A stretch of 49,689 bases of DNA. Source: Polyangia bacterium. Lineage in GTDB: Bacteria > Myxococcota_A > Polyangia > Haliangiales > JADYYK01. Position numbers and translations under genes: made by a program. Position 1 is the stretch's first letter. Every line of letters starts with the position of its first letter. The notes below the pieces were generated by a model. That model saw only the letters and a program-made list of their open reading frames with translations. It ran no database searches and had not been told where the DNA came from. The DNA lies in the NCBI GenBank assembly GCA_044229835.1, contig JBGASF010000046.1, positions 1 through 49,689 on the forward strand, in the 5' to 3' direction. Positions 3,867 through 28,171 of the stretch are shown here, one piece after another.

Positions 3867-3885
3867 CGTACCACCGCGCGCCGGG

Positions 3886-5880
<1,995 letters not shown>

Positions 5881-5990
5881 GACGCCGCGGTGTTTACCAC
5901 ATCATCCAAGCCGGGTCGCGCGATTGACATTGTGCGTCAAACTTGCAAGTGTTCCGCGCTCGTTGTCGCCGCTCCTTTTGTGAGGTCCCC

Positions 5991-7181
5991 ATGTCGATGA
6001 AGCAGTATCTGCTCACTCCTGGTCCGACTCCGGTGCCCGACCGCGTGCTGCTTGCGATGGCGCAGCCGGTGCTGCACCACCGCATGCCCGCCTTCTCCAA
6101 GATCTTCACCGAGGCGGTCGACGGCCTGGCGTGGATCTACCAGACCGCCGGTCGGCCCATCATCCTGAACGGCTCGGGCACCGCCGCGATGGAGGCCGCC
6201 GTCGTCAACCTGATGTCGAAGGGCGACACCGCGCTGGTCGCGCACTCGGGCAAGTTCGGCGAGCGCTGGGTCGAGCTCTGCAAGGCGTATGGAATCGCCA
6301 CCGTCGAGGTCAAGGCGCCCTACGGCGACGCCGTTGACCCTGCGGCGGTCGACCGGGCTCTCACCGAGAACCCCGGCATCAAGGCCGTGTTCATGCAGGC
6401 CAACGAGTCGTCGACCGGCGTGCGCCAGCCCTACGAGGCGGTCGCCAAGCTGGTGCAGGCGCGCCAGGACGTGCTGCTGGTGGTCGACGCCGTCAGCGCG
6501 CTGGGCGCCTGGGACATCCCGATGGACACCCTGGGCATCGACGCCCTGGTGACCGGGTCGCAGAAGGCGCTGATGCTGCCGCCGGGGCTGGCCTTCATCG
6601 CGCTGTCGGAGCGCGCCTGGGCTCGCCAGGCCAAGAGCGATCTGCCCAAGTACTACCTGAACCTGGCCACCGAGCGGAAGGCGCAGCAGAACGGCGAGAC
6701 CGCGTGGACGCCGGGGGTGTCGCTGATCATCGGCCTGCGCGAGGCGCTGGCCATGCTCAAGGAGGAGGGGCTGCCGGCCATCTTCGCGCGCCACGACGCG
6801 CTGGCCCGCGCCACCCGCGCGGCCATGGCGGCGGCCGGGCTGGAGCCCTTCTCGCGCGCGCCGTCGCCCACGGTGACCGCGATCAAGGCGCCCAAGAAGG
6901 CGGACGGCACCGTGATCGACACCGACGCGCTGGTCAAGCACCTGCGCGGCACCTATGGCGTGTCGATCGTGGGCGGGCAGGGCTCGATGAAGGGCCAGGT
7001 CTTCCGCGTCGCGCACCTCGGCTACTACGGGCCGTTCGACATCCTGACCGTGTGCACCGCGCTGGAGATGTCGCTCAAGGACCTGGGCTGCAACGTCGAG
7101 CTCGGCAAGTCGACGGCGGCCGCCGAGGAGATCCTTTCGGCGTGGCGCAAGCAGGCCAAGGCGGAGGCTGCGAAGAAGTAG
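5991..7181 (+). CDS. Class V pyridoxal-phosphate aminotransferase (AGXT / serine-glyoxylate / alternative phosphoserine aminotransferase type).
   Basis: MSMKQYLLTPGPTPVPDRVL... N-terminus and SQKAL pyridoxal-lysine region typical of class V aminotransferases. Located upstream of serA. ATG at 5991 chosen over the track start at 5943. Confidence 0.8.
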   Translation: MSMKQYLLTPGPTPVPDRVLLAMAQPVLHHRMPAFSKIFTEAVDGLAWIYQTAGRPIILNGSGTAAMEAAVVNLMSKGDTALVAHSGKFGERWVELCKAYGIATVEVKAPYGDAVDPAAVDRALTENPGIKAVFMQANESSTGVRQPYEAVAKLVQARQDVLLVVDAVSALGAWDIPMDTLGIDALVTGSQKALMLPPGLAFIALSERAWARQAKSDLPKYYLNLATERKAQQNGETAWTPGVSLIIGLREALAMLKEEGLPAIFARHDALARATRAAMAAAGLEPFSRAPSPTVTAIKAPKKADGTVIDTDALVKHLRGTYGVSIVGGQGSMKGQVFRVAHLGYYGPFDILTVCTALEMSLKDLGCNVELGKSTAAAEEILSAWRKQAKAEAAKK

Positions 7182-7993
7182 TGCCCGAGGAACGTGAAGG
7201 CGAACGTGAAGGCGAACGCGCAGGCCTGGCGACGCTGGGGGACATCGCCGCGCACCTCGATCAAGTGCTCGAGGTGCGGGCGGTGCGCGACTACGGGCCC
7301 AACGGCCTGCAGGTCGAGGCCCGCGCGCTGGGCAGCGCGGTGACCCGCGTCGCCACCGCGGTGTCGGCCAACCTGGCCGCCATCGAGGCCGCGGTGGCCT
7401 TCGGCGCCGAGCTCCTGGTGGTGCACCACGGCCTGATCTGGGGCGGCGGGATCGAGCGCGTGACCGGGCCGACCGCGCGCCGGCTGGCCGCGCTGCTGGG
7501 CGGCGGGGTCTCGCTGCTGGCCTATCACCTGCCGCTGGATCGCCACCCCACGCTGGGCAACAACGCCGGCCTGTGTGACCTGCTGGGGCTGGGGGCGCGG
7601 GCGCCGTTCGGCGAGGTGCGCGGCGTCGCCATCGGCACCGTGGGCGAGCTGGCGGCGCCGCTGCCGGCGGCCGAGCTGCGCGCGCGGGTCGCCGCCGGGG
7701 TCGGCCACCCGACCTTCGCCTTCATGCACGGGCCGGCCGAGGTGCGTCGCGTCGCGGTGTGCTCGGGCGCGGCGGGCGACATGATCGAGGCGGCGCGCGC
7801 GGCCGGCGCCGACGCCTTCCTGACCGGCGAGCTGGCCGAGCGTGCCGGCGAGCTGGCGCGCGAGCTGGGGATCCACCTCCTGGCGGCCGGGCACTACGCC
7901 ACCGAGGTGTTCGGGCCGCAGCGCCTGGGCGCCGAGCTGGCGACGCGCTTCGGCGTCGCCACCACCTTCGTAGACGTCCCGTCTCCACTGTAG
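7181..7993 (+). CDS. Nif3-like dinuclear metal centre protein (YqfO/YbgI family).
   Basis: Real gene is the 3' part of track ORF 6704..7993. GTG at 7181 overlaps the upstream stop (taGTG). Conserved ...DYGPNGLQVE..., HHG, AGHYATE motifs. N-terminal (EREG)n from a 12-bp tandem repeat. Confidence 0.7.
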   Translation: MPEEREGEREGERAGLATLGDIAAHLDQVLEVRAVRDYGPNGLQVEARALGSAVTRVATAVSANLAAIEAAVAFGAELLVVHHGLIWGGGIERVTGPTARRLAALLGGGVSLLAYHLPLDRHPTLGNNAGLCDLLGLGARAPFGEVRGVAIGTVGELAAPLPAAELRARVAAGVGHPTFAFMHGPAEVRRVAVCSGAAGDMIEAARAAGADAFLTGELAERAGELARELGIHLLAAGHYATEVFGPQRLGAELATRFGVATTFVDVPSPL

Positions 7994-8018
7994 CCATGTC
8001 GAGAAAAGGAAGCTCCCG

Positions 8019-9628
8019 ATGACGACACCGCAGCCGTTCAAGGTCCTGGTCGCCGACGACATGTCGGATCGCGTCACCGCGCTGCTGCGCGAGACGCCGG
8101 GCATCGAGGTCACGGTCAAGACCGGCATGAAGCCGGCCGAGCTCTTGGCCTTCGTGGCGCCGTTCCACGCCATCCTGGTGCGCTCGTCGAGCAAGATCAC
8201 GCCCGAGGTCATCGACGCCGCGCCCGAGCTGCGCTTCCTGGGTCGCGCCGGCATCGGCATCGACAACATCGACGTCAAGGCGGCGTCGCGGCGGGGGATC
8301 GTGGTCGAGAACACGCCGTCGGGCAACGCGGTGACCACGGCGGAGCACGCCATCTGCCTGCTGTGCTCGCTGGTGCGCCACATCCCGCAGGCCACGGCGT
8401 CGATGCGCGCCGGCAAGTGGGACAAGAAGAAGTTCCAGGGCACCGAGCTGTTCGAGAAGACGCTGGGCGTGGTCGGCCTGGGCAACATCGGGCGCCTGGT
8501 CGCCGAGCGCGCCACCGGCCTCAAGATGAAGGTCATCGCCTTCGATCCCTTCCTGGGCGAGGAGGCCGCGCAGCGCGTCGGCGCCGAGCTGGTCACGCTG
8601 GATCAGCTGTTCACCCGCTCCGACTTCATCACCGTGCACACGCCGCTGACGGCGGAGACCAAGGGGCTCATCGGGGCGCAGTCGATCGCGCGCATGAAGA
8701 AGGGCGTCTTCATCGTCAACGCCGCGCGCGGCGGGATCGTGGACGAGGCCGCGCTGCTCGACGCGCTCAAGTCGGGCCACGTGGCCGGCGCCGCGCTCGA
8801 CGTCTTCGCCGCCGAGCCGCCCACCGGCAGCCCGCTGCTGGAGCAGGACAACGTGGTGCTGACGCCGCACCTCGGCGCGTCGACCGACGAGGCGCAGGAG
8901 AAGGTCGCGGTCGAGCTCGGCGAGCAGCTGGTCGCCTTCGTGACCCGCGGCGAGATCAAGAACGCGGTCAATGTGGCGCCGGTGTCGCGCGAGGTGCTGC
9001 CGCGCCTGCAGCCCTACCTGGAGCTGGCCGGCAAGCTGGGCAGCCTGGTCGGGCAGCTGACGCGTGGCATCAACGAGGTCGACGTGGTGCTGACCGGCGA
9101 GGTCGGTGACCTGGGCAGCAAGGCGGTCGCCATGGCCGCGCTGGCCGGCGTGCTGCGGCCGCACCTGGATCGCCACGTGGTCAACGAGGTCAACGCCGCC
9201 ATCGTGGCCGCCGAGCGCGGCATCAAGATGACGCAGACGCAGCGCCCCGCGGGGCGCGACTACACCAGCGCCATCACCGTCATCGCGCGCGATCGCGACG
9301 GCAAGCAGCACCTGGTGCGCGGCGCGGTGTTCCACGTCGGCGAGCGCACCGAGCCGCGCATCGTGCAGGTCGATCAGTACACCCTGGAGGCGGTGCCCGA
9401 GGGGCGCCTGGTCATCATGCGCAACCACGACCGGCCCGGCGTCATCGGCGCGGTCGGGACGCTGTTCGGGCAGCGCGGCATCAACGTCGCGCGCCTGCAC
9501 CTCGGCCTCGACAAGGCCAACGATCAGGCGCTGGCGCTGTGGAACGTGGACGGCGAGATCGAGGACGCCGTGCTCGACGAGCTGCGCAAGCTGCCCCACG
9601 TGGTCGAGGTCCTGCGCGTCAGTCTGTA

Positions 9629-9629
<1 letters not shown>
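8019..9629 (+). CDS. serA: D-3-phosphoglycerate dehydrogenase with C-terminal ACT domain.
   Basis: Full-length match in layout to SerA: NAD Rossmann motif GVVGLGNIGRLVA, catalytic region, C-terminal ACT. Good RBS. Confidence 0.9.
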
Positions 9630-12344
<2,715 letters not shown>

Positions 12345-12345
<1 letters not shown>

Positions 12346-12437
12346 TGTTCCGGCAGCCCATCCTGGTCACCGCCGCGATCATCGCCGCCGCCGCGCTGGG
12401 GATCCTCTTCCTGGTGCTGCGGGGTGGATGTTCGTGA
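12345..12437 (+). CDS. Possible small single-pass membrane protein (30 aa), translationally coupled to purA.
   Basis: TGATG overlap with the purA stop. Hydrophobic MFRQPILVTAAIIAAAALGILFLVLRGGCS, very high GC3. Below the ORF-track length cut-off. Speculative. Confidence 0.3.
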
Positions 12438-12654
12438 AGTGGGCCCCGGCGCCCGGACCCGGACTGGGGGCTGGCTTCCGGCTAGCTTACGGAAAAGCGC
12501 CTCGATGAAGCCAAAGCTGGCCCAGGGCTCCGGGTCTATGCCTTCGAGAACGGCGGGTTTTCCGGTCGGCCGGTCTCTGGTGGTGGGCGCCCGTCCCGGG
12601 CTCACCGGCCGTGGCGGTAGCCTGTCCGTGGTGCGGAGGAGCTTGGCCAGTTGT

Positions 12655-12683
12655 TTGCTAGAAACGGTGAAAAGTCATATGAT
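12655..12683 (+). promoter_or_regulatory. Sigma70-like promoter candidate: TTGCTA, 17-bp spacer, TATGAT. Sits upstream of the zinc-ribbon protein gene.
   Basis: 4/6 match to -35 and 5/6 to -10 with ideal spacing, in a locally AT-richer intergenic stretch about 55 nt before ATG 12738. Confidence 0.4.
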
Positions 12684-12737
12684 GTCGCGACTGAAAAGGT
12701 CCGGCGTCCCCCAGGTCCCACTCTTCGAGAGGCCTCG

Positions 12738-14669
<1,932 letters not shown>

Positions 14670-14740
14670 CGTAGCGGCGTCGGACGCCTGAAGCAGCAGG
14701 GCCCCGCGGGCGATTGACGCGGGGCTCTGGTGTTTTCGGG

Positions 14741-15719
14741 CTACAGGATACCGGCCAGCTTGTGCGCCTGCTTGACGGCGGTCTCGAGGTCGCCGCTGTA
14801 GTACCAGGGGTACCTGAAGGCGCCCCAGCCCATGTGGGTCAGCGGCACGCGCAGGCGCGCGGCGTCCTCGGCGACGAAGGCGGCATAGGCCAGCACGTTC
14901 CACGGCAAGGTGGCCCACGGGCCCATGGGCGCGGTCTGCTCCAGGGCGGCGATGGCGTGATCGAGCTCGGCCAGCACCGCGGGCTGCTTGAAGTACGCCC
15001 GGGCGGCGGCCTCGCCGACGTCCATCAGCTGGCTGTTCCAGACCTCGAGGTGCGCGGCGATGGGCAGCGCGGGCAGGCCGCTCAGGGTCTCGGCGCGGGC
15101 GGCGGCGGCGCGCGCGAAGTCGAGCACCGCCTCGCCGGGCAGGCCGCTCCACTTGGGCGCCATCGCGACCACCAGCTGCTGGTGCGCCAGCCAGTTGTCG
15201 GGCTGGCGCCGGCACGCCTCGGCGAGCAGCTGCCGGCCCACGTCGAGGTCGGCGTCCTGCCCGCGCGCGATCTTGATGGCGAAGGCGTACGGCGTCGGAT
15301 CGGTGGGATCCATCTGCATGACCTGCTCGAGATCCTGGCGGGCCAGCGTCAGGCGCTGCTGGAACAGGCTGGCCGCCCCGCTGCCGACGCTGGACCCGGC
15401 GCCGCTGCCGCGCGCCTGCCAGGCCCAGTCGATCCGGGTCACGCCGCGCACCAGGAAGGGGACGACCGAGTGCGGCTCGTTGCCACACCAGGCGTCGCAC
15501 AGCACGCCGAGGTGGGGCACCAGGTGAGGTGACACCAGGTCGAGGTAGAAGGCGCGGTCGTTCCACAGCATGTCGCGCGTGGTCAGCAGGACGGTGTTGG
15601 TCGAGCTGACGTCGTAGCGCTTGACGGCATCGACCAGCATTGCGCCGGTGGCGTCACCTGCGCCTGGGTGCAGCTTGCTGCCGGCGAACATGGATTTGAG
15701 GCTGTCGAACAGGCCCATG
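14741..15719 (-). CDS. Hypothetical cytoplasmic protein.
   Basis: Coherent composition from MGLFDSLKSMF... (cat at 15717-15719). The upstream part of track ORF 14741..16030 is Arg/Pro-rich junk. No domain recognised. Confidence 0.45.
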
Positions 15720-15736
15720 GGGGGACGGTAGCACTG

Positions 15737-15750
15737 TCGAGCACGAGCAC
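15737..15750. repeat. Short (CGAGCA)x2 microsatellite remnant adjoining the conserved repeated element.
   Basis: Direct reading. Confidence 0.7.
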
Positions 15751-15786
15751 GTGGCCTTGGGTGGCGGGCGGTGGTGGCGCGGGGGG

Positions 15787-15846
15787 ACTGCGGCCGACCT
15801 TGCGTGTGGCGTGGGGCTGGTGCTGGGTTCGGCGGCGGCAGCTTGT
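15787..15846. repeat. Copy A of a ~60-bp repeated noncoding element (CTGCGGCCGACCTTGCGTG..GGGGCTGGTGC.GGGTTCGGCGGCGGCAGCTTG). A small hairpin (CAGCTT/AAGCTG) overlaps its 3' end.
   Basis: About 90% identical by eye to 49585-49644. The two copies would be in different reading frames, so not coding. Confidence 0.7.
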
Positions 15847-16259
15847 GTGGCGAAGCTGATGCGCGTGTTCGACCGCTGCCGCACTCCGCGCGGCCATGCG
15901 CAAGACGCTCCGCCTCGCCGTGATCGACTGCGATCATGGACATCGTCGTGTCTGCACCACCACCACTGCCACGCAAGGCGCCCAGCAACACCCTGGCGGC
16001 GGCGGCCTGACAACTCGGACTCGTCTTCATCCACCCTGCCGTGCGGCGCCTGCTGCCCGGACCGGTGGAGCGCTGGCGAGCACCGCATTCACCCGCTCCG
16101 ATTCGCCTCGGGGTGGCAAACCTACGGGATCACGAGAGCCGATCGAAACAGTGCCGGCGAGAGAACCGCGCAACACCAGCACTCCCGAGGCGATGACATC
16201 ACCGGGAGGGAACTACGCGGGCCAACGGCGTTCCTCAGTCGGACAGAAACCCTCGCTCT

Positions 16260-17651
16260 ATGTGCGTCCTCATCATCGGCTCAGAGTCCTATCGCTTGTC
16301 GCTCACGATGGCGTGCAAGCAAGCGGGATGGGAGGTGTCCGCCGAGCCCGGACGGGCAAACGCGATCCTTTTGGATCCAACGCTGGTTCGCTGGGCCAAC
16401 GAACCAGCAGAGCGAATCGTCGCGCTAGTGATCCGCGCAAGGCAGTTCGCCCAAGCCAACAGATTATCCCCTCGGCAGACCTGGCTGGTGGCGCTCCTGT
16501 CCCAGTGGGGACCCCCTTGCCCTGACGACCTTGCCGATCCTGTTCCGGTTGAGAACTCGATTCCGGTCGTCGCCACGGGCAACGGTGCGGCCAACTCATT
16601 CTTGCAGCCGCCATTCAACTACCCGGCGATACTGATCGTCTACAAGGAGTTGGCCTCCCCACAGAGATTGGTGTTTCAGCGCTGGGTGCAGGACGGGGGA
16701 GGCGCCAATGGATGGCGGACGCCACTCGAGGTTGATCCCTCCCTGCGTGGAGTGGCGGCAAACAATCGCTCGAACATCGTCGAGTTGAACGGCGAACTTT
16801 ATCTCTACGTTGTTCGCAATGACTCCACTGTGGCGGAGTATCTCTACGACCGAGCAAACTCGTCGTTTTCTCTGGTCGGGACCGTCCAGGTTGGCGGTGC
16901 GTCTGTCAGGGCGATCGAGGGTTTTGCTGTCACGGCTGGTTACGAGAAGGGATATGCTCGCAAGATCTACGCCGTCTATCGGCCGGCGGCCGGTGGGGCC
17001 GTCGAGTTTCTCCGTAGAGATGGGGCGAATGCATGGGCCGCGCTCACGAATACTGTGTGGTCGACCATGCCCAGGCTGAGTTCGACGTTCATGCCTGGCA
17101 TCACCTATGTGCCATTCGATGAGGCGGTGCCCTCTGAAGGTCGATTCTATGTCCACACAACAAACGCAGGCTGTGTCTTCGGGAACTGCATTAGCTCCAT
17201 ATTTACTGAGGGCAACGATCCCGCCTCGTCCACGACACGACGTCTGCGGTTTGTGACGAGTGGTCTGGGTTCCGAGGCCGTGTTTCAGTTCAGCCAGCTC
17301 AACGGGCAAGAGAGTCTCTTGGCGGTGCCGTACGCAGTGTCGGTGGGGACGAGGCACGTGGCTGTGGCAGGCTCCGTGACTGGGGTGGCTTTCTACCCAT
17401 TCTGGGATGGCATCTTCAACGCAGGTACGACCGATCACGATGATTTCGTCACAGTCGGCCGCAACACGGCATGTGGAATCAAGTGCATCCCACCAGCGCT
17501 GACACCGAACCCATCCGTTGCCGATGGATGCTGCCCGGGCGGTGCAACGGGACCTGGTTTTGACAAAGACTGCACTCAGAACTACCTGCGCGACGTTGCC
17601 TTCTCGGGGAGCGGAGACTGGAGCGCCACAGCCTCGTGTCGGGCGCTGTAG
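16260..17651 (+). CDS. Hypothetical protein inside a low-GC patch (~58-60% GC against ~71% for the window).
   Basis: Long ORF with atypical codon usage for this genome. No signal peptide or recognised domain. Start uncertain. Confidence 0.45.
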   Translation: MCVLIIGSESYRLSLTMACKQAGWEVSAEPGRANAILLDPTLVRWANEPAERIVALVIRARQFAQANRLSPRQTWLVALLSQWGPPCPDDLADPVPVENSIPVVATGNGAANSFLQPPFNYPAILIVYKELASPQRLVFQRWVQDGGGANGWRTPLEVDPSLRGVAANNRSNIVELNGELYLYVVRNDSTVAEYLYDRANSSFSLVGTVQVGGASVRAIEGFAVTAGYEKGYARKIYAVYRPAAGGAVEFLRRDGANAWAALTNTVWSTMPRLSSTFMPGITYVPFDEAVPSEGRFYVHTTNAGCVFGNCISSIFTEGNDPASSTTRRLRFVTSGLGSEAVFQFSQLNGQESLLAVPYAVSVGTRHVAVAGSVTGVAFYPFWDGIFNAGTTDHDDFVTVGRNTACGIKCIPPALTPNPSVADGCCPGGATGPGFDKDCTQNYLRDVAFSGSGDWSATASCRAL

Positions 17652-19036
17652 TGGGTTGGCTCGGTTGCATTGCGGCGCTGCTCGCGGGGTGCTTGGGTGC
17701 GCTTTCTGGCTGCGGCGGCAAGGGCCGCCCTGCCACTCAGGATGGAGCGCTGACGGATGCCGGGGCCAGCGTCGACTCCGCCCAGTGTCCCACCGCCGAT
17801 GCGGCCTCATGCGCTGGCGAGTGGCCGCCTCTGACTGCGCCCGCGGCGGCCAGCTTGCAGGTGCCTTTCGAGGTCAAGTGGGCCTATGTCGAACCGCAAG
17901 GGACGGGTCTGTTCAACGTGGTCGTCCTCCCATCTGCGCAGAAGGTGGTGTTTCGCCAGGGGACCTCAGTGATTGTGTTGATGGGCCTCGACGGTGGCAA
18001 CATCCGGCGGTTTGGGCCAGTTGCAGGGGCCGACCTTGGTCTCAACATCGCTGCTGACGCGCGCGATGACTTCTACGTGGCTGGTGAGCAACAAATCTAC
18101 TCGTACTCAGCGTCTGGAACACTGCGTTGGACGACCGACCTGCCGGGGCCCTTTCCGGCAGTGAGTGGCTCACCTGGCATGGCTGGCTTCGCGATTCGCG
18201 GCGGGACTCTCTACGCGGGGGCCACTGACCGGCGCCTCCACGCGATCGATACGACAGACGGGCGAGAAAGGTGGAGCATACCGCTCGCTATCGAAGCCTC
18301 GCTCACCCATCCCGTGGGCCGCGGCGATACTCTCTTCGTTCCAGTTCTGGGAGGCGGCCTGGTTGCCGTCGACGCGACTTCGGGTGCGGTGAGATGGCAG
18401 GCCCCGTGTCCGCATCTCATTGCCCCCAACATCCCCATGCCGACGCGAAGCATGGTGCTCGGTGGATCATACGATTTTGGTGGAGTGATCCCGAAGGAGG
18501 AGACTCGGGTTTTTGCGCTCGGGAAGTGCGACGAGCTCACCACGCCGGTATCACTGAGGGGAAACCCGGACTGGTCGCTGGAGACGCGGAGCGGGGCGGT
18601 TCTGGCCAGAGTCGAGCAGCGCAACCACGCCGTGGTGGATTTTGCCCTGATCGATCTCGCATCCAATCGTGAGCTCGCTCGCCGCACCATCGGCGTCGAC
18701 GACGGCGTCCAGCGCACGTTCGCTGCGTATGTCGTCGCGATTGGCGACGACGACGTTGCTTACATCGTCGAGACCTATGTGCCGATCGGAGCGCCAGGAG
18801 AAGCCTCACGGTTGCATCGTCTGTCGCTACCGAGCCTGGCGTCGGTCGGCCCCCCCCTTGAAATCGGGGAGGGCGCCACCATAGGCTATGCCTCGGCCAT
18901 GACCGATGAGGGGCTCCTCATCGTGCCACTGGCCCGGCGAGTGGTCGCGGTGCAGACCCCAAGCCCAGGGCCACTCAAGGGAGCATGGTCGTTGTCCCAC
19001 GGTGACGCGCGCGCCTCCAAGTGGCTCGAGCCGTAG
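17636..19036 (+). CDS. PQQ-repeat beta-propeller lipoprotein (BamB-like fold), in the low-GC patch.
   Basis: Lipobox LLAGCLGALSGC. PQQ-type repeats (GTLYAGATDRRLHAIDTTDGRERWSIPL, LVAVDATSGAVRWQAP). 16-nt overlap with the upstream gene. Confidence 0.6.
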   Translation: MSGAVVGWLGCIAALLAGCLGALSGCGGKGRPATQDGALTDAGASVDSAQCPTADAASCAGEWPPLTAPAAASLQVPFEVKWAYVEPQGTGLFNVVVLPSAQKVVFRQGTSVIVLMGLDGGNIRRFGPVAGADLGLNIAADARDDFYVAGEQQIYSYSASGTLRWTTDLPGPFPAVSGSPGMAGFAIRGGTLYAGATDRRLHAIDTTDGRERWSIPLAIEASLTHPVGRGDTLFVPVLGGGLVAVDATSGAVRWQAPCPHLIAPNIPMPTRSMVLGGSYDFGGVIPKEETRVFALGKCDELTTPVSLRGNPDWSLETRSGAVLARVEQRNHAVVDFALIDLASNRELARRTIGVDDGVQRTFAAYVVAIGDDDVAYIVETYVPIGAPGEASRLHRLSLPSLASVGPPLEIGEGATIGYASAMTDEGLLIVPLARRVVAVQTPSPGPLKGAWSLSHGDARASKWLEP

Positions 19037-19063
19037 GGAAGTCTGCATTCGCTCGCCCGGCGG

Positions 19064-20413
19064 TCAGCCCTGCAGCCGCGCCGCCAGCGCGAGCAGCCCC
19101 AGCCCGAACACCAGGATTGCCGCACCGCTGGCGACCACGGCTGCGCGCCGGGTGCGATCACCACCGTCACCGGTCAACCGGCTGCGCGACTCGGGCGTCG
19201 CCAGCAGCGCCGAGGCCAGCAGGTTGCCGCCGGCGAACAGGGCGCACAGCAGGATGGCCATCGGCGCGCGCGCCGCGAAGCCGGCCAGGGCCATGGCGCC
19301 CCACACCGCCGGCGAGCGCACCGCGGTCTTCAGCGCGTCGGCGCCCGCGGGCAGCGGCGCCGTCGCCGCGCGTCGCGCCAGCGCCAGGGTCACGATGCCG
19401 ATCGCCGCCATCACGCCCGCGGCCGCCAGCCCCAGCGCGCGCGGTGGCGACAGCTGCTCGAACAGGCGCGCCACCGGCAGCGCCGCGATCCCCACCACCA
19501 GGGTGCGCGCCAGGGCGTCCGCGATCGGGCTGACCTGCACCTTGTCACTGGTCAGCGCCGCCAGCCGTGCCGGCGCCACCGCGTCGAGCGCGCCGAGGAT
19601 CAGCGCGATCACCATCATCAGCAGCGCGCCCGCCGCGCCCAGGTCGGCGCGATGCGACAGCCCCAGCCACCACGGCACCGCGCCACCACCCGCACCACCC
19701 GCCCGCGTCGCGCCGCTGCCGGGTCGGCCCGCCGCCTGCTCGGGCGCGGCGTCGTCCAGCCAGGCCACCGTGACCGAGCGATCCTCGCCGCTCAGCTCGG
19801 CCGAGCCACGCCACAGGAACTGCGAGGTCACGCCCTGACCATGACGACCGATGTGCGAGGCCACCACGCGCAGCCCCGGCTCGGCCTGCACGAAGAGCTC
19901 GGTCTCGCCGGGCAGGTCGGGCTCGAAGGAGTGATCGACGTACAGCGAGTGGCTGCGCATGCGCCGGAGCGGCGCGCGCAGCACCAGGTCGACCGAGAAC
20001 GACCCCGCGCGCGTGACCGCCTGGCCCAGCCCCACCGAGGCCTCTGCCTTGTCGACCGGGACCACCACGCCGTCGATCTCGAGGCGCACCTTGGCCAGCA
20101 CCTCGGCCTGCGCGCGCCTGGCGAACGCGGTCTGCTCGGCGTCGTCGAGCACACCGTCGCGCGAGCTGTCCATCTGCGCGCGCGCCTCCAGCGCCGGGGC
20201 GTCCCCGAAGTACAGCGTGTACACGAAGCGCACGCTGTCCTGGCTGACGTCGAGCTTGAGGTAGCGGTTGTTCAAATTGGGATCGGGGCCGACATGCGCG
20301 GCCGCCGGCGTCGCCACCGCCAGCACGCCCAGCAGGACGACGACCCCGGCCACGGCCTGGCCCAGCGCCGCGGTGCTGCCCCTGCCTGGCCTCGAGCGCC
20401 CATGCGAGCCCAC
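19064..20413 (-). CDS. Membrane protein with signal peptide, periplasmic domain and a C-terminal multi-helix hydrophobic region.
   Basis: N-terminal signal AVAGVVVLLGVLAVATPAAAH, then a soluble domain, then several predicted TM helices. No confident family assignment. Confidence 0.5.
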   Translation of the reverse strand: MGSHGRSRPGRGSTAALGQAVAGVVVLLGVLAVATPAAAHVGPDPNLNNRYLKLDVSQDSVRFVYTLYFGDAPALEARAQMDSSRDGVLDDAEQTAFARRAQAEVLAKVRLEIDGVVVPVDKAEASVGLGQAVTRAGSFSVDLVLRAPLRRMRSHSLYVDHSFEPDLPGETELFVQAEPGLRVVASHIGRHGQGVTSQFLWRGSAELSGEDRSVTVAWLDDAAPEQAAGRPGSGATRAGGAGGGAVPWWLGLSHRADLGAAGALLMMVIALILGALDAVAPARLAALTSDKVQVSPIADALARTLVVGIAALPVARLFEQLSPPRALGLAAAGVMAAIGIVTLALARRAATAPLPAGADALKTAVRSPAVWGAMALAGFAARAPMAILLCALFAGGNLLASALLATPESRSRLTGDGGDRTRRAAVVASGAAILVFGLGLLALAARLQG

Positions 20414-20585
20414 GGGCCCCGTCTATCACCTTCACGGCCCGCGGGCAAAGGCCAAAGCCCCGAAACCACGTTCAAGCTGCCTGCCGCGCCAGTCAGGCTG
20501 CTCACGGTATTGACCGGAATCGTTGGCGCACCGTAGACTCCGCCTGCCCGGTCTTGCCGGGTGAACCCGCTTCGGAGGGTAGCTT

Positions 20586-21989
20586 ATGAGGAAGTCCCTG
20601 GCCTTTGCGCTGATCGGCTGCACGAGTCTGCTCGGTTGTGGCGGTGGTGATGGTGGTGGCCCCAACCCGGCGTTCGTCGACAAGCTGCCGTGCAGCGCCG
20701 CGACCAACGTCCCGCGCGCCGGCGACCACAAGCTGGTGCTGGCCAACCTCGAGATCGCGGACGTCACCGAGGGCTTCGACTTCAACGGCGACGGCCTCAT
20801 CGACAACGTGTTCGGCAACATCGGCCCGCTGGCCAACGGCTCGATCTCCGACTCGCTGGCCAAGGGCGAGCTGGTGGTCCCGATGGAGCTGTTCGACTTC
20901 CCGGCGGTCGCCGACGACACCTGCCTGAAGATGAACTTCTATCTCGGCAAGTACCGCTTCGACGACGACAACGACAGCAAGGTCACCACCGATACCAAGG
21001 GCAAGGGTGACTGCAACGATCACGAGATGACCATCCGCCCCGGCAACCCCGAGCTGGCCGACAACGGCGTCGATGACGACTGTGACGGCCTGGCCGACGA
21101 GACCCCGGGCGCCACCGGGCAGCCCGACGTGCCGTCGACCGCGACGCGTGACATGGACGGCGACGGTCAGACCGTGGCCGCCGGCGACTGCGACGATCGG
21201 CCCACCATGGGCACCATGTCGAAGAAGATGACCGGCGCCGAGGTCTGTGGCGACGGCTTCGACAATGACTGCTCGGGCGCCGCCGACGACGGCTGCACCT
21301 TCACCGATGGCAAGGGCGCCATCCGCCTCGATCCGCTGTCGTTCAACGCCGACCAGTCGGCCAAGATCAACTTCCAGAACGCCGCCGTGAAGGCGGGGCT
21401 GCTCGACGCCGGTCCGTCCAAGTTCGAGCTCTCGGTGCCGGCCATCAGCGACTTCGACCTCAACTTGAAGATCACCGGCACCCACGTGCAGGGCAAGGTC
21501 GCCGCCAGTGGCACCAGCGTCACCATCGGCACCATGACCGAGCTGGCCAAGCTGGGCGGCGTGCTGGATCTGCGCACGCTCGATCAGGTGCGCGGCATCG
21601 AGGTCAGCCAGATCAGCCTGCGCAAGGAGGACTCGCTGCTCGACGCCGTGTTCGCCGGCGGCGTCGTGGTCGCCTTCCTGCCGCTGCCCAAGAAGGAGGG
21701 CGGCAAGTACGACCAGCAGCCCACGCCCGACATCGACGTCGATGGCGACGGCCTCGAGATCGTGTGCCAGTCGGATCCGCCCGGCAGCACCAGCTGCGCC
21801 GCCAACCCCAAGGGCGACTTCCCGGTGGTCGACCTGTGCATCGACGGCGACGGCACCGCGGTGCGTGACGCCGACATGCCGACCGGCATGCAGTGCACCG
21901 ACGCCAAGAAGGGCGACAAGTACCGCTTCGTCGATGGCATCAGCGTGGCCTTGAATTTCCGCGCGGTTCCTGTGACCTTCGCTCCGTAA
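20586..21989 (+). CDS. Secreted lipoprotein with MopE-like putative metal-binding Cys/Asp repeats.
   Basis: Lipobox ALIGCTSLLGC. Repeats DNGVDDDCDGLADE and CGDGFDNDCSGAADDGC, typical of myxobacterial metal-binding-motif lipoproteins. Good GGAGGG RBS. Confidence 0.65.
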   Translation: MRKSLAFALIGCTSLLGCGGGDGGGPNPAFVDKLPCSAATNVPRAGDHKLVLANLEIADVTEGFDFNGDGLIDNVFGNIGPLANGSISDSLAKGELVVPMELFDFPAVADDTCLKMNFYLGKYRFDDDNDSKVTTDTKGKGDCNDHEMTIRPGNPELADNGVDDDCDGLADETPGATGQPDVPSTATRDMDGDGQTVAAGDCDDRPTMGTMSKKMTGAEVCGDGFDNDCSGAADDGCTFTDGKGAIRLDPLSFNADQSAKINFQNAAVKAGLLDAGPSKFELSVPAISDFDLNLKITGTHVQGKVAASGTSVTIGTMTELAKLGGVLDLRTLDQVRGIEVSQISLRKEDSLLDAVFAGGVVVAFLPLPKKEGGKYDQQPTPDIDVDGDGLEIVCQSDPPGSTSCAANPKGDFPVVDLCIDGDGTAVRDADMPTGMQCTDAKKGDKYRFVDGISVALNFRAVPVTFAP

Positions 21990-22028
21990 GGAACTTCCGT
22001 TCGACCCCGCCGCCTCCAGGAGCCGACC

Positions 22029-22244
22029 TTGCCCACCGACGTCGTCGCACACATCACCGGAACCGTCTGGAAGATCGAGAAGCAGATCGGCGACGACGTC
22101 GCCGAGGGCGACACCCTCATCATCCTGGAATCGATGAAGATGGAGATGCCCGTCGAGGCGCCGGCCTCTGGTAAGATCCAGGCCATCAAGATCAAGGAGG
22201 GCGATCCGGTCACCGAGGGCGCCGTCCTGATCATCCTGATCTAG
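22029..22244 (+). CDS. Stand-alone biotinyl-domain protein (BCCP-like, 71 aa).
   Basis: Biotin attachment motif E-S-M-K-M-E in a hammerhead-like context (GDTLIILESMKMEMPVEAP...G). TTG start with GGAG 8 nt upstream. Confidence 0.65.
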   Translation: MPTDVVAHITGTVWKIEKQIGDDVAEGDTLIILESMKMEMPVEAPASGKIQAIKIKEGDPVTEGAVLIILI

Positions 22245-22279
22245 ACCGCCTCTCACCATCCGGATCGGAGGACGCCGCC

Positions 22280-22552
22280 ATGAAGCTCGCCGCTGCCCTG
22301 TTGTTTGCGCTGGCCGTCGCGGGGTGCGGGGCGGTGGATGGCAAGGCGGTGGGCGCCAGCTGCCGGTCATCGAGCGAGTGCGCCGACGGCCTGGTGTGCG
22401 ACACCCTGACCGACAAGTGCGCCGAGAACATCACGCTGCGGCGTGACTCCGGCGTCATCGATGCCAACATGGTCGACGACGCCGAGGTCATGGATGTGCG
22501 CCCCATCGACGTGCGCATCATCGACGCGCCGTCGATCGACGCCCGCGACTGA
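22280..22552 (+). CDS. Small secreted lipoprotein (90 aa), Cys-rich.
   Basis: Lipobox LAVAGCG. GGAGGA RBS. Confidence 0.5.
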   Translation: MKLAAALLFALAVAGCGAVDGKAVGASCRSSSECADGLVCDTLTDKCAENITLRRDSGVIDANMVDDAEVMDVRPIDVRIIDAPSIDARD

Positions 22553-22575
22553 GCCGACCCCGACCCGCCTACGGC

Positions 22576-23691
22576 CTACGGCTCCTCGACGACCGCCGGC
22601 GGCACGCCCATGGTGTTGAACGGGCGCTCCTTGAGGATGCGGCTCATGGTCTTGAAGTCGTCGAACAGCTCGCGGTCGGCCAGCATGAGGCCGATGGTGC
22701 CCTCGGCGTCGGCGACGGCCTGGGTGATCTGAGCGGTCACCTTCATGATGCGGCGCGCCTCGTCGAGGGTGCCGCGCAGCGTGGCCAGGCCCGCCAGCAG
22801 CGCCTTGCGCTTGGCCGCCGGGAGCAGCCCGCCGAGGCGCGTGATGTTGGCCTGCAGCACCACGACCTTGCCGCGCATCTCGGTGATGTCGGCCTCGACC
22901 GCCTTCATGGCCTTCCTGAAGCGCGCCACCACCGCGCGCAGGCGGGGCAGCCGCTCGCCGGGCGCCAGCTCTTCCAGCAGCAGATCGCCCTCGTGCATGG
23001 CCTCGCGCACGTGGGCCACGATGCGGCTGACCTGGCCGCGCTCGGTGGGCAGCGACTGCAGGGTGTCCCACAGCGCCCACGCCGCGACCGCGAACTCGGC
23101 GAACGCCGGGCGCTGCTGCTCCACCGCGGCGCGCAGGATCTTCATGTTCTCCAGCGAGCGCGTCAGCAGCCGGTCGGTCGGCGCCGGGGTGACGCCGCAC
23201 ACCACGTCACCATCCTTCAGGAGTGGTCCCGGCTCGACCTCACGCGGCGGCGGCAGCACCTCGATGTACTGCGGCGCCAGGATCGAGCCCTGGTTGACGA
23301 AGAACTCGGCGTTCGTGCGCAGGTTGTCGCGCTCGCTCTGCTTGATCCACAGCGTCAGCAAGATCCGCGGCGCGCTGCTCTCGTGGCCGGCCTCGGCGGC
23401 GTCGCCGAACGCGGGCGGCTCGACCGGGCACACCCGGCGGTCGCGGCTGGCGAAGGCGACGCGCTCGACCTGGCCGATCTTCTTGCCCGAGACCCGCACC
23501 GCGGTGCCCACGCCCAGCTTGCCGATGCGCCCGAGCTCCATGGTGACCTGGACGCCGGGCCCGAAGTGCCGGCCCTCGATCAGCACGGTGGTGGCCATGA
23601 AGGCCGCCACCAGGCCGATGGCGACGGCGCCGACCACGAGGCGCAGGCTGTCCTCGTTGCGGCGCTTCTTCTTTTTCGGCGGCGTGGCCAT
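22576..23691 (-). CDS. MCE/MlaD-family protein (second paralogue, with long C-terminal helical region).
   Basis: N-terminal TM helix plus MCE domain (...VRVSGKKIGQVERV...). Confidence 0.7.
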   Translation of the reverse strand: MATPPKKKKRRNEDSLRLVVGAVAIGLVAAFMATTVLIEGRHFGPGVQVTMELGRIGKLGVGTAVRVSGKKIGQVERVAFASRDRRVCPVEPPAFGDAAEAGHESSAPRILLTLWIKQSERDNLRTNAEFFVNQGSILAPQYIEVLPPPREVEPGPLLKDGDVVCGVTPAPTDRLLTRSLENMKILRAAVEQQRPAFAEFAVAAWALWDTLQSLPTERGQVSRIVAHVREAMHEGDLLLEELAPGERLPRLRAVVARFRKAMKAVEADITEMRGKVVVLQANITRLGGLLPAAKRKALLAGLATLRGTLDEARRIMKVTAQITQAVADAEGTIGLMLADRELFDDFKTMSRILKERPFNTMGVPPAVVEEP

Positions 23692-23716
23692 GGCCCGGTT
23701 CAGCGGCGCTCGCTGC

Positions 23717-24733
23717 CTATTCCTTCCACAGGAACTTCCAGGGATTGCGCTTGAGGTCGCGCACCATCTCCTTGAGGTCGAGGTAGATGGCGTCGTCCCA
23801 CACGAAGGCGCCCGCGGTGCCCTTGCCGGCGCGGATGTGGTCGACCACGCTGCCGACCTTCTTGGTGATGCCGTTGACGTTCTTGGTGAGATCCGTGACC
23901 TGATCCAGCGAGGCCAGGATCTTGTCGCGATCCTCGGGTCGGATGATGCCGGTGGCGCGGATGACGCCGTCCATCGTCTTGTTGGCCTTGTTCATCACGC
24001 CGGGCAGCTCGCGGCTGGCGGTGGCGCTGATCGACTCCACGTTGGCGATGGTCCGTGACAGCCGCGCCGGGTTGGCGATCCCCTTGCGCAGGTCGCCAAT
24101 CAGCCCCGCACCCTGCTCGGTCAGCCCCTCGGCCTTCTGCAAGAGGCCCGAGATCTGCGCCTTGTTCTCGGTCAGCAGCGCGTTGACCGTGTTCACCGTG
24201 CTGGTCGAGTCCTCGATCAGCATGGTGATCTTCTCCTTGTTCTTCTTGAGCACCCACGACACGCCGTCGAGCACGTCGAACAGGCGCGCCACGATGAGAT
24301 CGGTGCGCGGCGGATCCTCGCCGTCGGCCTCGAACCCCGGCGGCATCGCCGGCTGATCGAAGGTCCCCGGGTTGATCTCGAGGTACTGCTCGCCCAGCAC
24401 GCCGGCGGTGTTGACGTAGAACTCGGCGTTCTGGCGCACGGTGTCCTTGACCCGATCCTCCAGCCACACCACCAGGCGGACATACTCGCGCTTGCCGGTC
24501 TTGGCCGAGACCTTGCCGCCGCGGAACTGCACGCTCTTGACCTTGCCGACCTTGATGCCCGAGACCTTGACCGGCGCGCCGGGGTGGATGTTGCCCGAGT
24601 AGCGGAACGACGCGTACACGGTGTAGCCATCCGACAGCGAGAAGTTGCCGAGGATGAAGATGAAGCCGCCGAGCAGGACCAGCGCGATCAGGATCATCGC
24701 GCCCACCTTGATCTCGAGCCCTCGTTCACGCAT
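23717..24733 (-). CDS. mlaD: MCE/MlaD-family substrate-binding protein.
   Basis: TM helix GAMILIALVLLGGFIFILG. MCE domain (VKVSGIKVGKVKSV...). Confidence 0.75.
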   Translation of the reverse strand: MRERGLEIKVGAMILIALVLLGGFIFILGNFSLSDGYTVYASFRYSGNIHPGAPVKVSGIKVGKVKSVQFRGGKVSAKTGKREYVRLVVWLEDRVKDTVRQNAEFYVNTAGVLGEQYLEINPGTFDQPAMPPGFEADGEDPPRTDLIVARLFDVLDGVSWVLKKNKEKITMLIEDSTSTVNTVNALLTENKAQISGLLQKAEGLTEQGAGLIGDLRKGIANPARLSRTIANVESISATASRELPGVMNKANKTMDGVIRATGIIRPEDRDKILASLDQVTDLTKNVNGITKKVGSVVDHIRAGKGTAGAFVWDDAIYLDLKEMVRDLKRNPWKFLWKE

Positions 24734-24742
24734 GCGTGCCTC

Positions 24743-25522
24743 TCAGAATCCCGGGGTTTCCATCGGGCCGTGCGACTGCCCGGTGATGAACTGCTGCACC
24801 ACCGGATCGGTGGAGGCGCGCAGCTCGGCCGGCGTGGCACAGACGTGCACCACGCCGCGATACAGGAAGGCGACCCGATCCGCGATCGAGAAGATCGAGG
24901 TCAGATCGTGCGACACCACGATGGACGTCACGCCCAGGGTGTCGGTCAGCTCGCGGATCAGCTTGTCGATGCGCCGCGCGCTGACCGGGTCGAGGCCGGT
25001 GGTCGGCTCGTCGAACAGGACGACCTCGGGGTCCAGCGTCAGGGTCCGCGCGATGGCGGCGCGCTTGCGCATGCCGTCGCCGAGGTCGGACGGCAGGCGA
25101 TCGGCGAACTCGCCCATGTGGACCTGCTCGAGGCGGCGCATGGCCTCGGTCAGGGCGCGCGCGCCGCGCAGCCCCTTGTGCTTGCGCAGCGGCAGCGCGA
25201 CGTTGTCGAGCAGCGTCATGGAGTCGAACAGCGTCGAGTTCTGGAACACCATGCCGCACTTCTTGCGCAGCGGGTACAGCGCGGCCTCCTCGAGATCCTG
25301 CACCGGCTGGCCGTCATAGAGGATCTCGCCGGCGTCGGCCTCGATGAGGCCGATGAGGTGCTTGATGGTGACCGACTTGCCGACGCCCGAGGTGCCGATG
25401 ATGAACATGACCTCGCCGCGCCCGATCTCGAGATCGATCCCGGTCAGCACGGCCTTGCCGCCGAACGCCTTCTCGACGCCGCGGAACACGATCTTGGGGC
25501 CGCTGTTGGAGGGCTCAGCCAT
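24743..25522 (-). CDS. mlaF: Mla-type ABC ATPase, subunit 2. Consensus Walker A/B and H-loop; deviant signature motif LGDGM.
   Basis: Real gene starts at [13 protein letters not shown] (ATGA overlap with mlaE); the upstream part of track ORF 24743..26398 is junk. Walker A GTSGVGKS, Walker B VVLFDEP, H-loop VVSHD, signature region [11 protein letters not shown]. Confidence 0.8.
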
Positions 25523-26316
25523 CAGCGCATCAGGTAGGTCATGAAGAAGTTGAGCAGCATGATCGAGATGGCCGCGGCGACGACGGCGTTGTTGACCGCG
25601 CGCCCGACGCCGATGGCGCCGCCCTTGACCGAGGTGCCGAAGTGGCAGCTGGTCAGCGCGATGGCCAGGCCGAACACGACCGCCTTGATGAGGCCGTGGG
25701 TGAAGTCCTCCAGGTGCAGCTGATCCTTCATGCCGTAGAACACGGTGGCGTACTCGACGTCGAGCAGGAGGTGCGAGAACAGGCCAGCGCCCAGCAGCGC
25801 GACCAGGTCGCCCATGATGACCAGGCAGACGATCGAGATCACCATCGCGACCACGCGCGGGACCACCAGGTAGCGCACCGGATCGATGGCCAGCGCGCGC
25901 AGGGCGTCGAGCTGCTCGGTGACCACCATGGTGCCGAGCTCGGCGGTGTTGTTGGCGCCGACGCGGCCGTTGAACATCAGGCCGATCAGCAGCGGCGCGA
26001 CCTCGCGCAGGGTGGCGTAGCCGGCGGCCCAGCCGATGATGCCGCGGGCGTTGAAGCGCTCCACGAAGATCCCGGCCTGGATGACCATGATGCCGCCGGT
26101 GAAGAAGGCGGTCAGCACCACGATGGGCACCGACTCGACGCCCATCTTGTAGAGGTTGCGCATGAGCTCGCGGGCGTCGAAGCGCGGCGGGATCAGCGCG
26201 CGCAGCACGCGCAGCAGGACCAGGGTGATGCCGCCGGCCTCGCGCGCGACCCCGAGGGCGCCGGCGCCGACCGCGGCCGACAGGTTGACGCTGGCGCGGC
26301 CGACGCGGCGGATCAC
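25522..26316 (-). CDS. mlaE: Mla-type ABC permease.
   Basis: MlaE/YrbE-like multi-TM protein. Couples by 4-nt overlaps to both flanking ATPase genes. Confidence 0.8.
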
Positions 26317-27050
26317 AGCGGGCCCTCGCTGGAGCCGGTGATGAACTGGCGCACCGCGGGGTCGTTCGACAGCGCGATCTCGGCGGCCTCGCCGTCATAC
26401 CTCAGCCGGCCCTTGTACAGCATGGCCAGGCGGCCGGCGTAGCCGCGCAGGGCGTCGACGTCGGACGACACCGCGACCACGGTGCAGCCGGTCTCGTCCT
26501 GCTCGGCCTTGAGCAGGTCGTAGATCTTCGAGGTCGTCACCGGGTCGAGGCCGGCGGTGGGCTCGTCATAGATCACGATGTCGGGCTGCGCGATCGACGC
26601 GCGCGCGATCCCGACCCGCTTCTTCATGCCGCCCGACAGCTCGGAGGGGAACTTGTGCTCGCTGCCGGCCAGGCCGACCGCGCGCAGGCGGCGCGCCACA
26701 CGGTCCTTGATCTCGCCGTCGGGCAGGCCGCCGCGGCGCACCAGCGGGAAGGCCACGTTGTCGCCCACGGTCATGAAGTCGAACAGGGCGTAGTTCTGGA
26801 ACAGCATGCCGATGCGCATGCGCAGCGCCATCAGCTCGTCCTCGCGCTGCTTGCTCAGCGCCACCCCGGCGACCGTGATCTCGCCGCGGTCGGGGCGCAA
26901 AAGGCCACACATCAGCTTGAGCAGGACGGTCTTGCCTGACGCACCGGGTCCAATCAGCCCCCAGCGCGCGCCCTTGGGCACATGCAGGTCGACCTGCTCG
27001 AGCAGGGGCGTGTGGCCGAAGCCCTTGGCCACTTGGCTGAACCGGATCAT
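26313..27050 (-). CDS. Mla-type ABC ATPase, subunit 1. Consensus signature LSGGM but H-loop His replaced (VAVSSDVD).
   Basis: Walker [10 protein letters not shown]-loop, LSGGMKKR, Walker B IVIYDEP, then S in place of the H-loop His. Confidence 0.75.
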
Positions 27051-27065
27051 CGGCGAACGCGGATA

Positions 27066-28171
27066 CTAACGTGATTTCGGTGCCGGTTGCGCGGATCCAG
27101 AGGCCTGGGTCACGGGCGGGCAGCCCAGCTGGGCGCGCAGCGCCGCCGCGCGGTCGCTGGAGGTCACCCGCTCGGGGTAGCGCCGGGCGTGCCGTGCCAG
27201 GGTGGCACAGGCGGCCCTGGGTTCGCCCCCGGCGGCCAGCGCGGTGGCGACCCAGACCGCGGCGTCGTCGCGCCGGGTCGAGTTGGGATAGTCGTCATAG
27301 GCGCGGCGGAAGTAGGCGAGCGCCTTGCCGGGGGCCTTCATGTCCTCGAGGGCGATGCGCCCGGCCTCGATGGCGGCGTCGGGCAGGTAGGGCGAGTTGT
27401 ACGACCCGATCATGCGCGCGGTCGCCTTGGTGCGCAGGAACTCCTCCAGGTGATCGATGGCCTCCTGGGGCCGGCCCAGGCCGCGCAGGATCTTGGCGGC
27501 GGTGCGCCAGGAGTCGTCGCGCAGGCCGGATTTCGGGTACTCCAGCGGCAGCCGGTCGTACAGCTTCAGGGCGCCTTCGAGGTCGCCGCGGTCCTGGGTC
27601 AGCAGGGCCGCCTCGAACAGCAGGTTGTCGCCCACCGTGGTGCCGGGCACCTGCGGCTCGAGCTCGAGCAGGATGGCCAAGAGGTGCGCCTGGTCGTGGC
27701 GGCGGCCCTCGCGCACCAGCACGCGCAGGGCGTCATCGGCCGCGGCCGAGTCGGGGTAGCCCAGGATGACCTTGTAGTGCAGCTCGTGGGCGCGCTGGTT
27801 CTGGCCGCTGTGCATCAGCAGATCGGCGGCGCGCTCCAGGGCGCGCGAGGCGGCGCGCCCGCGGTTGCCGACCATGTCGGGGATGACCAGGAAGGCGGCC
27901 ACGGCCTCATTGATCCGCATCAGGCGCGCCAGCGCCATGCCACGGCCCAGCGCGGCCGGCCCGCACACCTTGCGCAGGGTCCAGTCGCTGACGTCGCGCG
28001 GCGCGCCCTGGCAGCGCCTGTCGACCAGGCCGGAGTACAGCTTCAGGGCGTCGTCCCAGCGGCCCTGATCGCCGGCGCGCTCGGCCTCGGTCAGCTCGCG
28101 CGGGACCGCGCTGGGGCCACAGCCGGCCAGCGCGGCGCAGACCAGCAGCACGACGCCGAGACGGCCGGGCT

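Follow-up and report, generated by a model that had tools for sequence, protein, structure and literature searches.

A small decaying low-GC islet with a chimeric protease remnant and a BamB-like lipoprotein gene in a Polyangia genome

Lawrence-Ochman-type compositional islets are marked by GC content and codon usage distant from those of the host, precise presence or absence between close relatives, and decay after acquisition. Here, we analyzed a locus with these features in a 49,689-nt stretch of DNA from a Polyangia bacterium (GenBank assembly GCA_044229835.1, contig JBGASF010000046.1, positions 1–49,689 of the forward strand), hereafter called the window. The locus is a patch at 15720–19064 holding two overlapping plus-strand genes, referred to as gene 1 (16260–17651) and gene 2 (17636–19036). 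Its segment 15737–19060 is probably what remains of an accessory cassette that was gained horizontally and is now decaying, located between two native genes and beside a native (CGAGCA)n microsatellite. Like the described islets, the patch has homologs that lie in compositionally unusual regions of other genomes, in one case next to insertion sequence (IS) elements. However, integrase, transposase, tRNA target, and direct repeats are all absent, the patch is only 3.3 kb long, and it predates a species split. Unlike those islets, it was probably moved or lost between sibling lineages via homologous recombination of its flanks.

The two genes can be compared with three described protein families. 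Metzincin metallopeptidases (M10/M12-like) carry the zinc motif HExxHxxGxxH, and those compared here have propeller or lectin-like domains at the C-terminus. Full-length relatives of gene 1, such as P0017, P0019, P0030, and P0040, have an HExxHxxxxxH motif, a signal peptide, and TSP3 repeats, and they end in the domain found in gene 1, whereas the whole catalytic half is gone from gene 1 itself. The small LuxR/GerE regulators resemble the other end of the gene: residues 1–79, along with about 100 nt of leader, show homology to a GerE-domain protein of 140 aa, but the helix-turn-helix (HTH) is cut after 12 residues. BamB (YfgL) and other PQQ_2 proteins are eight-bladed propeller lipoproteins, and gene 2 shares with them the PQQ_2 domain, a lipoprotein signal, and its best structural match. 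However, gene 2 is only 14–17% identical to BamB, scores far too low against the BamB equivalog models, and has as its conserved genomic partner a secreted metalloprotease gene rather than genes related to the β-barrel assembly machinery.

Composition and borders of the islet

We measured base composition and codon usage along the window. The patch has a GC content of 63.7%, against 71.1% for the whole window. With a sliding frame of 3,345 nt, the strongest dip in the window falls at the patch, where GC reaches a minimum of 63.5%; outside the patch, the same measure has a mean of 71.6%, a standard deviation of 2.0%, and a minimum of 67.8%. The lowest 1-kb value, 59.2%, lies at 16501–17500. By part, gene 1 has 60.1% GC, gene 2 has 65.4%, and the 540-bp noncoding stretch to their left has 68.7%, with 72.6% in its left 124 nt. 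GC at third codon positions (GC3) is 0.69 in gene 1 and 0.72 in gene 2, compared with 0.86–0.98 in almost all other candidate open reading frames (ORFs). Codons ending in A or T make up 31% of gene 1 and 27.5% of gene 2, against 5.9% natively. A leave-one-out codon model built on 28 native genes gave log-likelihood z-scores of −8.3 for gene 1 and −7.3 for gene 2. GC3 carries most of the shift, with GC at first codon positions (GC1) and whole-gene GC reduced too.

The compositional anomaly is real and significant, and the noncoding stretch lies outside it. An initial annotation, made from the sequence alone, had described a patch of about 58–60% GC with two genes of atypical codon usage. The dip and the unusual codon usage of both genes are borne out, and the patch is statistically distinct from the rest of the window in both sliding GC and codon analysis; the figure of 58–60%, however, fits only the core of gene 1. 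The same annotation had called the 540-bp noncoding stretch visibly AT-richer, which does not hold: its GC content is unremarkable for intergenic DNA, and the repeated element at its left end looks native rather than foreign.

Next, we compared the locus with the metagenome-assembled genome (MAG) "Deltaproteobacteria bacterium SJ525," the sole relative in the species-level genome collection. SJ525 is collinear with the window on both sides of the patch at about 94% nucleotide identity. In blastn alignments of the reverse-complemented SJ525 locus, positions 1–9839 correspond to window positions 5841–15736, and positions 9956–17955 correspond to 19061–27068. The 3,324 nt at 15737–19060 are thus missing from the orthologous SJ525 site, where a 116-bp spacer of a purine-rich run and a (CGAGCA)8 array stands instead; with the flanks collinear, the patch is therefore a precise indel. 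The borders given in the initial annotation come within 17 nt (left) and 4 nt (right) of this segment. At the right junction, the only traces of the SJ525 spacer were the microsatellite and chance 7- to 10-mers. Both junctions are present, at 99.8–100% identity, in 12 same-species contigs that come from different samples and from independent assemblies (ENA, Logan, and NCBI), which excludes misassembly.

The segment is framed by two native minus-strand genes. To the left is a 325-aa gene with no assigned function (hyp325, 14741–15718; GC3 about 0.87 or higher) with orthologs in SJ525 and in two further contigs, L027 and L028. To the right is a gene for a 449-aa membrane protein (hyp449, 19064–20413; GC3 0.93). 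A 24-nt tail (19037–19060) separates the stop codon of gene 2 from the right breakpoint. The noncoding DNA at 15846–16153 had no homolog in blastn and tblastx comparisons with all of the loci fetched.

The two genes of the islet

Gene 1 encodes a 463-aa product that had been labeled a hypothetical protein. A word-indexed search matched it only to itself, but its apparent status as an orphan did not survive an exhaustive HMMER search, which gave 63 homologs, most of them matching as the C-terminus of proteins of 900–1,000 aa. Residues 79–461 correspond to the C-terminal ~375 residues of these proteins, with the best match, P0017 (958 aa), at 41% identity; the propeller part aligns with P0017 residues 584–957 at 38–41% identity. 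A signal peptide, TSP3 repeats, and the HExxHxxxxxH zinc motif are features of P0017 and its kin; in P0017, P0019, P0030, and P0040, the motif lies within residues 430–502. The full-length family falls below every curated Pfam and NCBIfam threshold, and a PDB search detected no solved relative by sequence.

The N-terminal part of gene 1 has a different origin. Its residues 1–79 are 66% identical to residues 16–94 of P0021, a 140-aa protein whose GerE/LuxR HTH spans residues 83–137, so that the homology stops 12 residues into the HTH. At the DNA level, the leader and first ~79 codons (16154–16496, plus strand) are 69% identical to positions 75–417 of a luxR locus (L019), and this homology, which includes ~100 nt of leader, stops at ~16495. 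The two homologies abut at residues 79/80 in blastp. From 16497 to 17651 on the plus strand, the gene is the 3′ remnant of a metzincin-like secreted protease gene, homologous to the P0017 C-terminus and comprising the C-terminal β-propeller and a six-cysteine tail. Homologies to two unrelated genes lying back to back point to gene 1 being an in-frame fusion made by deletion, with the 5′ end of a regulator gene joined to the 3′ third of a protease gene.

We consider it very likely that gene 1 is a chimera in which the N-terminus of a LuxR-type regulator meets the C-terminal domain of a metalloprotease, without HTH, signal peptide, or catalytic domain, and the label of hypothetical protein is not supported. 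With its HTH cut off, the product cannot be a LuxR regulator, and no HExxH motif, the mark of metzincins, is present in gene 1. It had no Pfam match, and the GerE HTH domain was not detected. The same fused architecture was not found elsewhere among 1.8 billion cluster representatives searched with HMMER. In an AlphaFold2 (AF2) model, the predicted local distance difference test score is below 50 for most of residues 1–88 and high for residues 90–410, which take on a sialidase/lectin-like propeller fold. Gene 1 is very probably a non-functional fusion remnant. A C/T polymorphism at 16216 affects its start: T, present in seven of nine contigs, creates an ATG and a 478-aa version of gene 1, whereas the window has ACG there and a start at 16260.

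Gene 2 is an intact 466-aa gene that begins 16 nt before gene 1 ends. It had been described as a PQQ-like β-propeller lipoprotein, and we agree with this assignment. The product matches PQQ_2 (PF13360) with 57.4 bits against a cut-off of 27.6 and has an LSGC lipobox whose cysteine, Cys26, is kept in P0003, its one close homolog (42% identity). Its AF2 model, built from a shallower alignment without locus-derived propeller sequences, has a predicted TM-score of 0.72, and its best fold match is BamB, with a target-normalized TM-score of up to 0.75. It did not reach the thresholds of the BamB equivalogs TIGR03300 (34.2 versus 285.2 bits) and NF008351 (27.6 versus 423 bits) or of the quinoprotein dehydrogenase model TIGR03075 (14.8 versus 480 bits), and PF01011 matched only as a 60-residue fragment below the cut-off.

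Annotations of the long contigs (P0091/P0093), including this contig's NCBI record, list only the last 194 aa of gene 2, while the short contigs give 466 aa. A nonsense mutation was considered and rejected, as single-nucleotide polymorphism (SNP) mapping shows an intact frame; the shortening is an effect of the gene caller, apparently misled by the atypical codon usage. The homolog P0003 (L002, 224–1591; L016, 10001–11266) is a solo low-GC3 gene (0.72) with no adjoining protease gene, sitting 38 nt after a 2Fe-2S ferredoxin-like gene with a GC3 of 0.98.

Origin and age of the islet

We examined the genomic context of the homologs. In five assemblies (among them one 8-Mb NCBI contig), the P0017 protease gene is directly followed by an overlapping gene for a PQQ_2 protein of 465–473 aa, 36% identical to gene 2. 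An overlapping 468-aa PQQ_2 gene also follows P0019 (963 aa, 31% identical to gene 1). The adjacency of protease and propeller genes is conserved in these two closest full-length relatives examined, and the window holds a decayed copy of a protease and propeller-lipoprotein module.

Low GC3 was found in every family member examined within a high-GC host. Module genes have GC3 values of 0.61 and 0.59 in L025 (neighbors 0.91–0.94), 0.52 in L026 (neighbors 0.89–0.96), and 0.74 in L020 (host genes downstream of the block, 0.84–0.94), and the solo P0003 gene in L002 has 0.72 (neighbors 0.86–0.98). Depressed GC3 of the module genes in other hosts means that the composition belongs to the cassette and was not made by decay in place, and it supports a horizontal origin. 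At L020 (GCA_963853155.1, 8-Mb contig), the intact pair lies inside a ~14-kb low-GC3 block (276–14237), which also contains a kinase-like gene and an ISAZ013 transposase gene; an IS21 istA/istB pair lies just downstream, so that transposases of the two elements bracket the block.

The age of the islet can be judged from a third lineage, represented by a 1.7-kb contig (L018). This contig carries, in order, the GltJ-like neighbor gene, a 330-nt stretch without a match, the final 100 codons of gene 1 at 92% amino acid identity, and the open start of gene 2; hyp325 and three quarters of gene 1 are gone. Between the window and L018, synonymous divergence (dS) in the islet is 0.18–0.19 with a ratio of non-synonymous to synonymous divergence (dN/dS) of 0.22–0.23, and the flank gives a dS of 0.14 and a dN/dS of 0.16. 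Islet and flank dS are thus similar at the same locus in L018, and the islet therefore predates the lineage split. Judging by these substitution rates, it appears to have been under purifying selection for most of the time since. The initial annotation had suggested a recent horizontal acquisition or a fast-evolving locus. Of the former, the foreign and statistically distinct composition stands but the recency does not, and the latter is not supported, as the islet dN/dS compares with 0.10–0.20 in flanking genes. In L018, the 330-nt segment (637–968) that replaces hyp325 and most of gene 1 has direct repeats of ~23 nt (GGTGGGTCrGTTTC..GCTGGC), and it had no match among the loci fetched.

From the relatives, an intact cassette can be reconstructed. 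It would have comprised genes for a small LuxR/GerE regulator, a ~960-aa secreted metzincin-type zinc protease, and a ~470-aa BamB-like PQQ_2 lipoprotein translationally coupled to the protease. The protease would have carried a signal peptide, TSP3 calcium-binding repeats, the HExxHxxxxxH motif, a C-terminal β-propeller, and a cysteine-rich tail, and the lipoprotein may have been its membrane-anchored partner. An internal deletion would then have joined regulator codon ~79 in frame to the last ~385 protease codons, removing the HTH, the signal peptide, and the catalytic domain, leaving a 463-aa junk fusion ORF and sparing gene 2. The low GC and GC3 would be the cassette's own composition, kept through incomplete amelioration, and the islet may have spread or been lost among sibling lineages by homologous recombination of its flanks. 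We think it probable that the islet is of foreign origin.

Several observations weigh against this reconstruction. P0030, a more distant relative, has no propeller partner. The link between the regulator and this protease subfamily is weaker, its evidence being the chimera and L019, where the LuxR homolog precedes a different, M10-like metalloprotease; in L020–L024, the gene upstream is not LuxR. No donor lineage was identified, and a codon bias intrinsic to the family is still compatible with the data. Furthermore, the segment has only two ORFs, neither with a Pfam, NCBIfam, PHROG, or PADLOC mobility match, and no integrase, transposase, or phage or defense families were found in it. The only tRNA gene in the window, at 36073–36146, lies away from the segment. 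Direct and inverted repeats were searched for at its borders, as the initial annotation had proposed, with none found, and a search for plasmid copies of its genes found none. Relative to genomic islands in general, the locus shows host-distinct composition, absence from a close relative, and scattered, compositionally atypical homologs (L002, L020–L024, L025, and L026); mobility genes and tRNA or direct repeats are lacking.

The flanks give conflicting signals on whether the indel reflects gain or loss. In a fourth lineage (L027/L028), hyp325 is present, and upstream of it lie a long hexamer array and a G-rich start similar to the window's module (described below). Over 360 nt of the GltJ-like gene, the tree ((window,SJ525),(L018,L027)) is favored by 19 informative sites against 3, a topology under which the islet would be ancestral, with a loss in SJ525. 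In hyp325, the window is closer to L027 (dS 0.135) than to SJ525 (dS 0.204), a grouping that fits either gain after SJ525 split off or recombination. Divergence between the window and SJ525 also peaks in the two genes adjacent to the indel, with dS of 0.20 and 0.28, compared with 0.12–0.14 further out. The incongruent trees and this peak of flank divergence fit homologous recombination between sibling lineages that exchanged the islet or the empty allele. Within the species, the islet genes have 0 synonymous changes, 4 non-synonymous changes, and 1 stop-loss, against 25 synonymous and 7 non-synonymous changes in flanking genes (Fisher p = 0.002); these counts are small, which tempers the pattern they suggest, namely that constraint has relaxed, as expected after destruction of the protease.

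It is conceivable, though unlikely, that the genes are long-resident, with a GC3 that is selected or intrinsic to the family through rare-codon-limited or silenced expression, and that SJ525 deleted them with no recent transfer involved. All six contexts have depressed GC3 over protein identities of 27–42%, the islet is common to two lineages under purifying selection, and one flank tree favors loss in SJ525. However, GC1 and whole-gene GC are lowered too, unrelated genes and IS elements accompany the L020 pair in its 14-kb low-GC3 block, the distribution among relatives is patchy, and the family GC3 of 0.52–0.74 looks like different donors or stages rather than a single set point. A related proposal, to which we give little credence, is that the protease and lipoprotein pair is a self-contained accessory module whose GC3 of ~0.5–0.75 is a maintained feature in every high-GC host (GC3 > 0.9). 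The causes could be rare-codon-limited expression, the silencing of DNA richer in AT, or ongoing exchange between Myxococcota-like genomes via flank recombination, with native spacers of (CGAGCA)n plus module as preferred sites of gain and loss. If so, the low GC3 would not be the fading trace of a single transfer. That the low GC arose in place, as pseudogenes under relaxed selection drifted AT-ward by mutation bias, is very improbable and already largely refuted. Such drift would accord with gene 1 being a fusion remnant, with all five within-species changes being non-synonymous or stop-loss, and with the further truncation in L018. Yet intact full-length homologs elsewhere have GC3 equally low or lower, the between-lineage dN/dS indicates long-term constraint, and a dS of ~0.18 is too small for GC3 to have fallen from ~0.93 to ~0.70 since the split.

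The other two accounts concern the status of gene 1 and of the contig. Gene 1 could be a functional new gene, with a truncated receiver-like N-terminus and a propeller, and its frame may stay open for translational coupling to gene 2. The in-frame fusion, the 463 open codons in a stretch of 60% GC, the start of gene 2 lying 16 nt inside its end, and a dN/dS of 0.23 in the C-terminal part all agree with a function, but the dN/dS mostly reflects time before the fusion. Moreover, the product has no signal peptide although its six-cysteine tail is typical of secreted proteins, most of the N-terminal residues are predicted not to fold, no other representative searched shares the architecture, all three SNPs are non-synonymous, the start codon is polymorphic, and three quarters of the gene are lost in L018; we judge a function improbable. 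There is practically no chance that the patch stems from an error of assembly or binning that worked foreign reads into a chimeric MAG contig. The window is indeed a whole MAG contig and microsatellites break assemblies at this locus, but the same junctions recur in the 12 contigs from independent assemblies, and a diverged lineage joins islet DNA to the same native neighbor gene.

Repeats, other features of the window, and meaning

The left boundary had been placed at a microsatellite and a repeated element, and this placement holds. A remnant (CGAGCA)n array of 2.3 units on the plus strand (15738–15751) is followed by the first copy of a G-rich module (15760–15845, plus strand). Eight units stand in the orthologous spacer of SJ525, and ~13 mixed units in that of L027/L028. 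Further arrays, all in the same orientation, lie at 1–74, 10653–10734, 43670–43716, and 49449–49557, the last of which forms, with a second copy of the module (49561–49645), a second composite element at 49449–49645 on the plus strand. SJ525 keeps arrays at both orthologous sites checked, those of window position ~10653 and of the islet spacer, with different copy numbers (13 versus 11 and 2.3 versus 8). The module is ~86–95 nt long, and its copies are 86% identical over 87 nt and share an exact 21-mer, with 0 expected by chance. The module is not present at the SJ525 locus. The repeated element looks native; it marks where the indel begins on the left and does not look like part of the foreign DNA.

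We considered and rejected the module as a structured RNA: it had no Rfam match, its fold z-scores of −2.3 and −2.5 were weak, and its two copies are predicted to fold in different ways. Exact-protein look-ups for the DNA beyond the second copy, at the right end of the window, matched nothing. Two of the arrays begin 2–3 nt past a stop codon, and one lies in frame behind the HisZ-like domain of the ORF at 9734–11050, where it would read (ST)13. Contigs tend to end inside these arrays. A literature search on such islands in Myxococcota and on the hexamer repeat found nothing relevant.

Other features of the window lie apart from the islet. The GltJ-like gene (12651–14669, plus strand; 672 aa) encodes an MJ0042-type zinc ribbon, GYF_2, Pro/Lys-rich repeats, and an AgmX/PglI-like C-terminal domain; its likeness to GltJ is in N-terminal architecture only (102 bits against a cut-off of 450). 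Tandem repeats at 34758–34991 comprise (CACGGT)n with (CACGGAC)n, (CCGCCCG)n with a 27-nt period, and (CGTGAC)n, the outer arrays forming 41-nt inverted arms that are 80% complementary. An 853-aa protein encoded at 46293–48854 on the plus strand matches Pfam MVP_shoulder (8.7e-27) and Vault_3 and is a bacterial homolog of the eukaryotic major vault protein.

The patch is an ordinary feature, a small decaying islet that we take to be foreign, resolved in unusual detail. Its main value lies in annotation and as a clean example, and it opens no long-standing question. An apparent orphan annotated as a hypothetical protein can be a deletion-made fusion of two unrelated genes, and a small islet without mobility genes can persist while decaying differently in sibling lineages. 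The locus also draws attention to a conserved, uncharacterized pair in high-GC genomes of the deltaproteobacterial or Myxococcota type, in which a BamB-like lipoprotein accompanies a large secreted metzincin-like protease.

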